Assembly: GCA_016212505.1 (NCBI GenBank) | Contig: JACRGB010000046.1 | Coordinates: 1 to 61,173, forward strand | DNA length: 61,173 bases | DNA from: Candidatus Micrarchaeota archaeon | GTDB taxonomy: Archaea > Micrarchaeota > Micrarchaeia > Anstonellales > Bilamarchaeaceae | Direction of reading: 5' to 3' | Shown: piece after piece, positions 7,005 to 8,034 of the stretch | Layout of the letters: each line of letters starts with the position of its first letter | Position numbering within the stretch: the first letter of the stretch is position 1 | Program-made: the position numbers and the translations under genes | The notes under the pieces: model-generated | Database searches by the model: none | Told to the model about the DNA's origin: nothing | The model's input: only the letters and a program-made list of their open reading frames with translations

Positions 7005-7376
7005 TTGCATGCAGAACTTCGAAGATTTAGAGATCTTCTTGAGCGTGATGGAAACGGAAACCCTACTTTTGTTTTAGGTCATCAGGCAGAAAAGATGGTT
7101 CAGGCAGTTATGAATCGCGGTAATGAGTCAGCCAGAAAGTTATTCGAAGCAAATTTATTGACTAGAGATCTGGCACTTAGTGAACCTGAATCAGGTTTGT
7201 TAACCGTTTCAAGTGCAAAAAATACTTTTGTTGATGCATTAAATGCCTTGGAAACGGAAGGAATCGTTTCTACGATAAGAAGGGTATTGACGATAATACC
7301 AAAAGTATTTGCTGCTCTGGCAGAAGCAGGATGCGGATATGAACCTAGTTCTGGAGAAAGGGAAATGGATAATTAA
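7005..7376 (+). CDS. Hypothetical protein
   Basis: 123-aa ORF filling the gap after eif2g. TTG start uncertain; no motif recognised. Confidence 0.5.
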   Translation: MHAELRRFRDLLERDGNGNPTFVLGHQAEKMVQAVMNRGNESARKLFEANLLTRDLALSEPESGLLTVSSAKNTFVDALNALETEGIVSTIRRVLTIIPKVFAALAEAGCGYEPSSGEREMDN

Positions 7377-7381
7377 ATGAA

Positions 7382-7693
7382 TGTGACCGAAGAGACCCCA
7401 TGGCAAGAAACGCGCTAGCGTTTCTTGACTGTCGTGATCGAAGCGTCGATCACAACACTGCAAGCACTCGCCATTTGATGGCTTGTTCATGGCCGAAGTG
7501 TCGGCCATGGCACACACGCGAAATGCAGGGCATTTCGCTCGTGCGGTCGCTTCGCGACGTGGGGTACTTTGAGAACGACGATTCGTTCTCAAACCCTCAG
7601 GAACATTGGTAATGTTCCTGAAGTCCCTCATTCGGTCACAACTTTCCAAATTGGATCGCCGCAAGCGGCGGGGTATTCGACCCAATTTGGAAA
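7382..7693. repeat. Tandem hairpin array, family B copy 2, MITE-like with 10-bp terminal inverted repeats
   Basis: TGTGACCGAA (7382-7391) / TTCGGTCACA (7631-7640) enclose hairpins at 7404-7427, 7434-7453, 7488-7509, 7518-7538, 7568-7593 and 7597-7621. A further 12-bp stem follows (7643-7654/7682-7693). Confidence 0.9.
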
Positions 7694-7796
7694 TAAAATA
7701 ATACCTCATTTTTAAAATCTTCTTCAGAATATTAATTATCGAATTTTGAGTAAAATCAGAACTCTAGACTGTGAACCGGGAACAGAAAACATTACT

Positions 7797-7937
7797 GCTG
7801 GGGTCGCCTAGCCCGGTATGGCGGCAGGTTGCTAGTGCCTTTTAGTAAAAGGCACCCCAAAACGGGGTTGCTATTGCTAAGGCATGTGGAAACCTGTTGC
7901 GCGTGAGCGTTCGGGAGTTCAAATCTCCCCCCTAGCG
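7797..7937 (+). tRNA. trnS: tRNA-Ser(GCT) with 57-nt intron at 37/38 (7835-7891)
   Basis: Acceptor GCTGGGG/CCCTAGC, anticodon stem GCAGG/CCTGT, anticodon GCT at 7831-7833, long variable arm GCGC-GTGA-GCGT, T-arm GGGAG-TTCAAAT-CTCCC, discriminator G, no encoded CCA. Confidence 0.93.
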
Positions 7938-7997
7938 AACGAAGTGAGCTGGGGGGGTACTTGAACGAATCGTCGTTCAAGAAGACCCCCCTAGCGA
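7927..7997. repeat. 12-bp duplication of the tRNA-Ser 3' end around a hairpin insert
   Basis: CCCCCCTAGCGA at 7927-7938 and 7986-7997. Between them lie GCTGGGGGGG and TTGAACGA-atcg-TCGTTCAA. Confidence 0.8.
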
Positions 7998-8034
7998 CCT
8001 ACTTTTTGTTATTAATTTTAGCCCAACTAAAAAA

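Follow-up and report, generated by a model that had tools for sequence, protein, structure and literature searches.

What is the dense cluster of hairpins that lies between the genes for aIF2-gamma and tRNA-Ser in a Candidatus Micrarchaeota archaeon, and how did it come to be there? We addressed this question in a window, by which we mean the whole stretch of 61,173 nucleotides that was analysed. It is contig C36 of a 1.48 Mb genome (G000; 46 contigs, 42% G+C, 90% complete), whose nearest public relatives are metagenome-derived genomes of Micrarchaeota (DPANN archaea). The genes beside the cluster encode ribosomal protein S6e and aIF2-gamma. The gap from aIF2-gamma to tRNA-Ser measures about 900 nt in G000, against 12-233 nt in many relatives, and is filled by the cluster together with an orphan open reading frame (ORF). 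The main features of the locus are as follows.

7005-7376, + strand: orphan ORF of 123 aa
~7381-7696, + strand: the element (repeat unit), annotated at first as a 312-base hairpin cluster at 7382-7693
7797-7937, + strand: tRNA-Ser(GCU) with a 56-57-nt two-hairpin intron at position 37/38, 100-105 nt downstream of the element

The orphan ORF belongs to no Pfam family and was not found in the 39 other genomes of the genus. A first-pass annotation, made by reading the sequence, had placed a tRNA-Ser gene roughly 100 nt downstream of the cluster, and this gene is indeed there. Because of its intron, it is missed by ARAGORN with default settings and by Rfam at the gathering threshold; the ARAGORN intron search detects it, and Rfam with permissive filters scores it at 35.9 bits (gathering, 29). 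Its anticodon, GCU, is fixed by intron-less orthologues in relatives. The same annotation had seen no capacity to encode a transposase, in agreement with our finding that the ORFs running across the element (156 aa on the minus strand and 70 aa on the plus strand) have no significant Pfam match.

An exceptionally stable predicted fold

The stems, loops and coordinates that had been read from the sequence by eye were all recovered. The segments TGTGACCGAA (7382-7391) and TTCGGTCACA (7631-7640) close a branched fold with eight hairpins, whose loops include GCTA, AGCG, AGTG and CGAT. An extra stem with an inner hairpin had been noted after the branched fold, and it is present as well, with 13-14 bp at 7641-7694 and its inner hairpin CGCCGCAAGCGGCG at 7657-7670. 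The minimum free energy was -159.5 kcal/mol for the plus strand (z -12.8) and -170 kcal/mol for the minus strand (z -14.4), and none of 100 shuffled sequences folded equally well on either strand.

Such exceptional predicted stability, and a position directly after a stop codon, would be consistent with a structured non-coding RNA or a cis-acting RNA (in a 3'-UTR or between cistrons) that was duplicated a few times. The first-pass annotation had considered an unknown structured RNA to be just as good a reading as a mobile element, and had proposed a comparison with Rfam. However, Rfam 15 gave no match at the gathering threshold anywhere in the window, and nothing meaningful for the element at E-values up to 5 or for two minimal copies of it.

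The cluster belongs to a repeat family

The hairpin cluster is a member of a repeat family rather than a single designed structure. Three copies occur in G000, on contigs C36, C4 and C24, and these have a common core and differ by clean blocks of 32-60 nt, while uninterrupted copies of ~119 nt occur in relatives. The intact unit consists, in this order, of an ATSAA leader, hairpin 1, hairpin 2 and an AT(G/C)AA tail. In hairpin 1, the outer stem GTGACCGAAGAG/CTCATTCGGTCAC contains a bulged A, and TAT comes after the apex CCCCACTGCAAGCAGTGGGG. Hairpin 2 combines an outer stem of 13-14 bp with the inner hairpin CGCYGCAAGCRGCG and, on one side only, the loop GGGTATYRRA.

To determine how widespread the unit is, we used a covariance model (R1) built from five cores from which the inserts had been removed. 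Matches were found in 6 of the 40 genomes of the genus. In the order as a whole, 34 of 176 genomes have the unit; these belong to two families and to 17 of the 48 genera, and each has between 1 and 18 copies. In G118 there are 17 identical copies of 119 nt, and G130 has 17 R1 matches, 12 of which were inspected with their flanks. Versions of 173-176 nt, which we read as the unit with one small insert, are multi-copy in G060, G084 and G086. A single-copy sequence conserved in relatives had been named beforehand as the pattern that would speak against mobility; with three copies in G000 and up to 18 per genome in the order, this is not what we see. Sequencing depth in the source metagenome is 5-8 times greater at the termini of the element than in its flanks, and the termini are joined to several different interiors.

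Between genomes, the stem sequences change by compensatory changes while the inner hairpins remain constant. In the alignment, base pairing holds in 92.8% of cells, and changes on both sides are seen in 24 of 40 pairs. Double-change cells number 67, against about 11 G-U cells, so that stems are preserved almost exclusively through Watson-Crick pairs; as the alignment was fitted to the model, these values are biased towards structure. Strong covariation of this kind, like the conserved loop motifs, would again fit a functional RNA. Against this stand the very few G-U pairs, the bursts of identical copies, the absence of the element from 34 of the 40 genomes of the genus and its insertion into otherwise intact gene junctions. 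In addition, the interiors of some hairpins are inverted: two copies in G041 (on contigs C29 and C24) match in 22 and 19 of 25 positions as the reverse complement, versus 6 of 25 in the same orientation, and several G130 copies also have inverted hairpin interiors. Such inversions would scramble an RNA motif. As the same hairpins moreover flank a transposase gene (see below), we regard an RNA origin of the family as highly improbable, and the earlier suggestion of an unknown structured RNA is not upheld.

Several comparisons bear on how the family has spread. The core of the copy on contig C4 of G000 is 95% identical to a copy in G003, but the two genomes have aIF2-gamma genes with only 68% identity, a contrast that suggests horizontal movement. 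Both inner hairpins also occur in order, without the outer stems, on the virus-like contig IMGVR_UViG_3300009311_000010 (L348, 4639-4745). When viral and metagenome collections were queried with the loose pattern CCGAAGAGN{8,38}CTCATTCGG, most matches were due to chance and one was a true copy (L264). A BLAST search gave no match of the element to annotated phages or plasmids. In the papers searched, we found no account of this repeat family or of hairpin repeats in Micrarchaeota.

Nested inserts in the window copy

Alignment to the minimal copies separates the window copy into the parts of the original unit and four inserts, M0 to M3.

7377-7380, + strand: ATGA, conserved tetranucleotide of the 5' junction, directly after the TAA stop of ORF 7005-7376
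7381-7399, + strand: hairpin 1, 5' side, with the 10-nt arm TGTGACCGAA, GAG and ACCCC (start of the transposase-type inner hairpin)
7400-7456, + strand: insert M1, a 57-nt double hairpin of the ATGGCA...TGACTGTC family; also in the C4 copy, not in the C24 copy or minimal copies
7457-7466, + strand: ACTGCAAGCA, 5' half and loop of the transposase-type inner hairpin of hairpin 1
7467-7483, + strand: first half of insert M0, a 32-nt mini double hairpin (CTCGCCATTTGATGGCT and CGGTCGCTTCGCGAC) that splits the inner hairpin
7484-7543, + strand: insert M2, a 60-nt double hairpin nested in M0; window copy only
7544-7558, + strand: second half of insert M0, CGGTCGCTTCGCGAC
7559-7566, + strand: GTGGGGTA, 3' half of the inner hairpin of hairpin 1 and start of the conserved TAT
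7567-7623, + strand: insert M3, a 57-nt double hairpin; window copy only
7624-7640, + strand: TCCCTCA junction and the 3' arm of hairpin 1, TTCGGTCACA
7641-7694, + strand: hairpin 2, with a 13-14-bp outer stem, the inner hairpin CGCCGCAAGCGGCG (7657-7670) and the one-sided loop GGGTATTCGA (7671-7680)
7693-7697, + strand: ATAAA, degenerate form of the ATGAA/ATCAA terminal or target pentanucleotide (TTCAT/TTGAT on the minus strand)

The 5' side of hairpin 1 aligns with the minimal copies and is homologous to an outer stem and inner hairpin found beside tnpA genes in G103, G059 and G034. The inner hairpin that is split in the window is unbroken, as CCCCACTGCAAGCAG(G)TGGGG, in G003, G017, G103 and others, and also flanks the tnpA gene on contig C5 of G103. 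For hairpin 2, a segment of a 21-nt identity class, TCGCYGCAAGCRGCGGGGTAT, adjoins tnpA on contig C6 of G122.

All four inserts lie in loops or junctions of hairpin 1, and together they provide seven of the eight inner hairpins. The 'about eight hairpins' of the first-pass annotation are therefore present, but mostly as the product of nested inserts that came later and not as one designed structure. M0 is found in all three copies of G000 and in a copy of G003 (contig C71), and is missing from minimal copies. The first hairpin of M3 has 16 nt in common with a hairpin at 7963-7978, with the loop flipped. Modules like M0 to M3 are also present in the tRNA introns of the window. Later insertion of the four double-hairpin modules into hairpin 1 (M0 of 32 nt, M1 of 57 nt, M2 of 60 nt within M0, and M3 of 57 nt) has lengthened the window copy to ~316 nt, compared with ~115-119 nt for the intact unit. 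The structure does occupy 7382-7693 as first annotated, but the true unit runs from about 7381 to 7696, with the flanking ATGA at 7377-7380.

Asymmetric ends and a fixed insertion site

The ends of the unit are asymmetric (ATSAA ... ATGAA). The left end reads AATCAAC..., and the 3' ends of copies read ...GAAATGAA, ...CAAATCAA or ...GCAATGAA. Inspection of the flanks of 37 copies revealed neither inverted repeats at the true ends nor a target-site duplication. The sequences on the two sides are unrelated for the 17 identical copies of G118, for 12 copies in G130 and for six in G077. The pentanucleotides at the two junctions are constant, and each copy begins with ATGAA or ATCAA. In the window, ATGA (7377-7380) and A7381 together form ATGAA, which reads TTCAT on the minus strand. 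The G118 copies are particularly informative, since these otherwise identical copies differ only in their last three bases (GAA in 13 copies, CAA in two, and GAT and GAG in one each), indicating that those bases belong to the target and not to the element. On the minus strand, TTCAT or TTGAT directly precedes the copies on their 5' side, and their last bases are ...TTGAT or ...TTCAT.

A filled and an empty site could be compared for the copy on contig C7 of G017. This copy lies within GCATT-ATGA-[168 nt]-ATGA-GTGTG and separates two genes that stand next to each other in relatives; of these, the upstream one is present in all 40 genomes of the genus. In 9 of 11 relatives of G017, the corresponding ATGA stop/start overlap (...TTATGAGG...) is intact and empty. 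The insertion in G017 preserves the stop codon of the upstream gene and the start codon of the downstream gene, and at other copies the upstream ORF likewise ends in or at the leader. As TTCAT is the complement of ATGAA, copies often come to lie at ATGA stop/start junctions without breaking a gene. We considered whether ATGA at both ends of the G017 copy might be a target-site duplication, and rejected this, because in G118 the left junction of the 17 identical copies is ATCAA and the right one ATGAA; the ATGA pair is therefore read as an element end plus the target. The earlier proposal to look for a target-site duplication thus gave none, whereas the proposal to look for empty sites succeeded in relatives but not at the window locus. 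There, Logan contigs (from the only sequencing runs found, three DNA runs of one groundwater study) break inside the element; they contain other copies and no empty-site allele.

These observations also bear on the idea of a classical MITE, derived from an insertion sequence (IS) with a DDE transposase and defined by TGTGACCGAA and TTCGGTCACA as 10-bp terminal inverted repeats. The perfect inverted repeat, the lack of coding capacity and the presence of multiple copies all agree with it. Yet in all copies the conserved unit runs past the inverted repeat on both sides, as a ~5-nt leader and a ~55-nt second hairpin are kept outside it every time. Since the unit takes in this second hairpin, the 10-bp repeat is internal, not terminal, and forms the basal stem of hairpin 1. 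Nor is there a target duplication or a larger element with these repeats in G000: we looked for a parent IS bounded by the 10-bp repeat and discarded it as a candidate, as TGTGACCGAA and its complement are paired only in the three small copies. Stems that vary by compensatory changes around constant inner hairpins do not fit this origin either, and we judge it to have very little chance of being correct. What remains of the MITE-like label is that the element is gene-less, multi-copy, patchy and, by the filled and empty sites, mobile; bounding by terminal inverted repeats and target duplication do not apply.

Homology to hairpins beside Y1 transposase genes

The inner hairpins of the element, CCCCACTGCAAGCAGTGGGG-TAT and CGCCGCAAGCGGCG-GGGTAT, match hairpins that flank Y1 (IS200-type) transposase genes in five related genomes. 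Contig C6 of G122 carries a gene for a 143-aa Y1 TnpA (98.6 bits to Pfam Y1_Tnp) with ATGAA-9 nt-CGCAGCAAGCTGCGGGGTATCAAC on one side and TCGCTGCAAGCAGCGGGGTATTAACCC-ATGAA on the other, giving an IS of ~535 nt; the segments of its ends that were matched to the element hairpins are CGCAGCAAGCTGCGGGGTAT and TCGCTGCAAGCAGCGGGGTAT. An autonomous element complete at both ends was found in this one genome only, with boundaries that derive from the ATGAA repeats and not from an empty site. Relatives of this TnpA with 38-53% identity are encoded in G103, G034, G059 and G026, where the tnpA genes are flanked by CCCCACAGCAAGCTRTGGGG-type hairpins (e.g. CCCCACAGCAAGCTATGGGG and CCACTGCAAGCAGTGGGG). An outer stem like that of hairpin 1 is found at the 3'-side end of tnpA in G103, G059 and G034. 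The linked TnpA proteins score 98.6-114.5 bits against Pfam Y1_Tnp. IS200 copies of G017, G007 and G024 were also considered as partners and set aside, as their flanks lack the element motifs and they have hairpins of their own, similar to CCGGTCTGTGACCGG.

Gene-less derivatives of IS200/IS605 elements have been described in haloarchaea as PATEs (palindrome-associated transposable elements). Members of the IS200/IS605 family themselves have neither terminal inverted repeats nor target duplication, but carry sub-terminal hairpins that are bound by TnpA, require single-stranded DNA as their substrate, and have a fixed target (PMC2806898). The well-studied ISDra2 inserts 3' of TTGAT, has sub-terminal hairpins and needs single-stranded DNA (PMC2806898). 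The family is reported to be the most widespread IS family in archaea, and to occur in more than 65% of Micrarchaeota genomes (PMC13343696).

Through their homology to tnpA-flanking hairpins, the two inner hairpins can be identified as those of the left and right ends in an IS200/IS605 clade, and the element as a non-autonomous derivative of it. At the level of sequence, the unit has every hallmark of such a derivative. We conclude that the segment 7381-7696 of the window is very probably a decayed copy of a ~115-nt non-autonomous element of PATE type, derived from IS200/IS605. The same homology points to a mechanism of the HUH single-strand type. The two inner hairpins would serve as the left- and right-end sites of a Y1 (HUH) TnpA, which is predicted to bind them and would be provided in trans. 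On the model of IS608 and ISDra2, excision and re-insertion would proceed through single-stranded DNA; the active strand would be the minus strand of the window, and the element would enter directly 3' of TTCAT or TTGAT, leaving neither terminal inverted repeats nor a target duplication.

G000 itself encodes no Y1 transposase (PF01797) and no TnpB (PF07282) in its 90% complete genome, and a tblastn search with the G122 TnpA gave no match there. The linked TnpA clade is found in 7 of the 176 genomes of the order, versus 34 for the element, and most genomes with the element lack it. Present mobility in G000 is therefore not explained by the IS200/IS605 model. Given that M0 and M2 split one of the putative transposase-binding hairpins and that the genome has no Y1 gene, the window copy is probably immobile, and most likely a relic.

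The rarity of the TnpA clade also matters for a comparison with bacterial REP/REPIN systems. On that view, the host would have domesticated the linked Y1 protein as a RAYT-like enzyme, and the two-hairpin units would be its REPIN-like substrates, possibly with a role for the host in protecting mRNA 3' ends or in insulating cistrons from each other. RAYTs are Y1 enzymes related to the TnpA of IS200 (PMC2817692, PMC3116915), the copies described here lie at gene ends and between cistrons, and G122 combines one linked, hairpin-flanked tnpA with nine gene-less units. However, REP/REPIN systems are built from palindromes of 20-40 nt that carry a GTAG or CGTC tag and stand as inverted doublets, whereas the two inner hairpins are by sequence in direct order, and no GTAG/CGTC tag is present. 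The TnpA clade is patchy (7 of 176) and missing from most genomes that carry units, including G000. Near-identical units despite 68% identity of a housekeeping gene argue for horizontal spread. A domesticated system of this kind therefore seems very unlikely to us, though slightly less so than either a classical MITE or an RNA, and we retain the non-autonomous IS200/IS605 derivative as the preferred reading.

Small double-hairpin modules

The inserts M0 to M3 are part of a broader abundance of hairpins in G000. This genome contains 579 perfect hairpins with stems of at least 8 bp, compared with about 140 in shuffled sequence. Clustered hairpins are strongly biased towards non-coding DNA, as 72% of them fall outside a crude coding map spanning 86% of the genome. 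The M1 family (ATGGCA...TGACTGTC) has 15 members of 50-57 nt in G000, with constant linkers and with stems that differ yet are perfectly paired. For M2 and M3, there is no second copy in the G000 genome that could have served as donor, so that the IS200 model gives no account of their origin. Archaeal bulge-helix-bulge introns were considered as a reading of the inserts, but no such motif (two 3-nt bulges on either side of a 4-bp helix) was seen by eye at the boundaries of M1.

A speculative possibility, which we think unlikely but worth stating, is that modules of the M0-M3 type form a separate, undescribed class of ultra-small mobile DNA of Micrarchaeota. Such DNA would prefer single-stranded loops and junctions of hairpins already in place, as well as the loops of tRNA genes, where it would survive in the form of the numerous non-canonical introns seen in this lineage. 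If this were true, modules of ~55 nt would rank with the smallest transposable units known and would supply introns to archaeal tRNA genes.

Discussion

Compared with known systems, the element most resembles IS200/IS605 elements and PATEs. Like these, it has asymmetric ends without terminal inverted repeats or target duplication, a similar sub-terminal hairpin in the same orientation at each end, and a fixed target pentanucleotide (TTCAT/TTGAT here and TTGAT for ISDra2; PMC2806898). It differs from them in that its hairpins are wrapped in additional long outer stems, resulting in two large hairpins. Other differences are that G000 has no TnpA and that the window copy contains four nested hairpin inserts. 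With REP, BIME and REPIN-RAYT systems, it shares short, palindromic, gene-less repeats at gene ends that are linked to Y1/HUH enzymes and are often mosaics (PMC2817692, PMC3116915, PMC3733652). Unlike them, it lacks the GTAG/CGTC tag, has direct doublets, is linked to a patchy Y1 gene with IS-like flanks and resides in an archaeal host. Classical MITEs of prokaryotes, some of which are common to viruses and their hosts, are likewise non-autonomous, multi-copy, intergenic and patchy (PMC11602168), and the inner hairpin pair of the element is also found on one virus-like contig; the element differs from them in having no terminal inverted repeats, no target duplication and no DDE partner.

For the small modules, the closest parallels are the double-hairpin elements of chytrid mitochondria and the hairpin elements of sponge mitochondria. 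Like M0 to M3, these are small, G+C-rich, nested and non-coding (PMC2800124), and they have neither an encoded enzyme nor a known mechanism (PMC2800124). In contrast to these organellar elements, with which they have no sequence in common, modules of the M0-M3 type occur in an archaeon, both inside an IS-derived element and within introns of tRNA genes.

We assign the element, as an apparently undescribed family, to the known non-autonomous class of IS200/IS605 elements. An exotic-looking structure of ~300 nt can thereby be annotated, as one of the IS200/IS605-derived mini-elements found in about one fifth of the genomes of one Micrarchaeota order. Such elements are mis-handled by gene callers, RNA finders and assemblers alike, with contigs that break at copies and spurious ORFs that cross them, and the family now provides a usable covariance model and a candidate transposase. 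The element also acts as a landing pad for mini-hairpin inserts, whose origin the IS200 model leaves aside. The TTCAT/TTGAT target explains why copies are positioned at ATGA overlaps and leave genes unharmed in these very compact genomes. Finally, the near-identical copies in divergent genomes and the trace left on a virus-like contig are signs of horizontal exchange between these symbionts.

The tRNA-Ser gene and its surroundings

The gap between the aIF2-gamma gene and the tRNA-Ser gene is lineage-specific, and is occupied by a short ORF and the element. The features discussed here are as follows (window coordinates):

7005-7376: 123-aa ORF, no Pfam family
7797-7937: tRNA-Ser(GCU) gene, with an intron of 56-57 nt at position 37/38 that contains two hairpins
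7926-7999: duplicated tRNA 3' end (CCCCCCTAGCGA), two copies 60 nt apart with a 48-nt insert between them

A homologue of the 123-aa ORF was found in none of the 39 other genomes of the genus. The tRNA-Ser(GCU) gene gave no match with default ARAGORN or with Rfam at the gathering threshold, and several relatives carry this gene without an intron. The intron and the double-hairpin inserts belong to one size class. The insert that separates the two tRNA 3'-end copies reads GCTGGGGGGG-hairpin-CCCCCCTAGC. Directly upstream of tRNA-Ser, relatives possess tandem GCTGGGG-hairpin-CCCCAGC units (loci L017, L013, L015 and L012), which are copies of the tRNA acceptor arm.

Hairpin families and arrays in the source genome

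The source genome (G000) contains 579 perfect hairpins, compared to approximately 140 expected from shuffling, and of the clustered ones 72% fall outside a rough coding map, which covers 86% of the genome. One family, with the architecture ATGGCA-hairpin-TGACTGTC-hairpin, was found at 15 sites in members of 50-57 nt. Its linkers are constant while the stems differ from copy to copy, all of them perfectly paired. Members are nested one within another, and also interrupt the ATTGGAATTTGCAAATTCCAAT hairpin after CC. Perfect hairpins are also arranged back to back in arrays, some of whose modules are also found in tRNA introns. Examples from G000 (contig:position) include:

C22:7907, C25:18255, C25:18304, C27:24880, C27:24927: ATGGCA family sites
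C36:1-295, C37:1-267, C8:11571-11761, C3:22634-22819, C44:9062-9297: back-to-back perfect-hairpin arrays
C1:1-135, C7:1-140, C7:2090-2225: recurrent contig-end termini

Around 19 contigs end in such recurrent hairpin-rich termini, which read ...TTAAGGGGAAAATCTGGCTTTTCCCCTTAA...CCCCACCTTAGAAAAGGTGGGG... and ...CCCCACCCTTTAGGGTGGGGAGGATGTCAT. The same termini occur at contig ends some 17-19 times each, which indicates a collapsed repeat present in about 18 copies. A 2.3 kb contig of the same genome, C45, encodes IS21-like IstA and IstB.

Copies and putative copies of the element in other sequences

Both inner hairpins of the element, CCCCACCGCAAGCGGATGGGGTAT and CGCCGCAAGCGGCGGGGTAT, were found in element order on the virus-like contig IMGVR_UViG_3300009311_000010 (locus L348, 4639-4745), where they lie within a predicted 93-aa ORF and lack the outer stems. 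The pair possibly represents a decayed element copy. The contig also carries PolB-like and SNF2 helicase genes, and its proteins all lack homologues in G000. It is a possible vehicle for horizontal spread of the element.

In loci L133 and L136 (genome G041) and L401-L405 (genome G130), the arms of hairpin 2 enclose an interior in inverted orientation, except in L404, where the inverted interior is that of hairpin 1. This is the flip-flop typical of inverted-repeat recombination in DNA. At the C24 copy in G000, a short HIT-domain-like ORF (Pfam HIT, E-value of 0.0015, below the cut-off) runs directly into the element (locus L110, 2091-2417, minus strand), whose insertion may have cut off the 3' end of the gene. 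Versions of 173-176 nt are present in at least seven copies per genome in G060, G084, G086 and G077 (contig C51). We read these as the unit carrying one putative insert of about 55 nt, in which case an insert-bearing unit would still be able to multiply.
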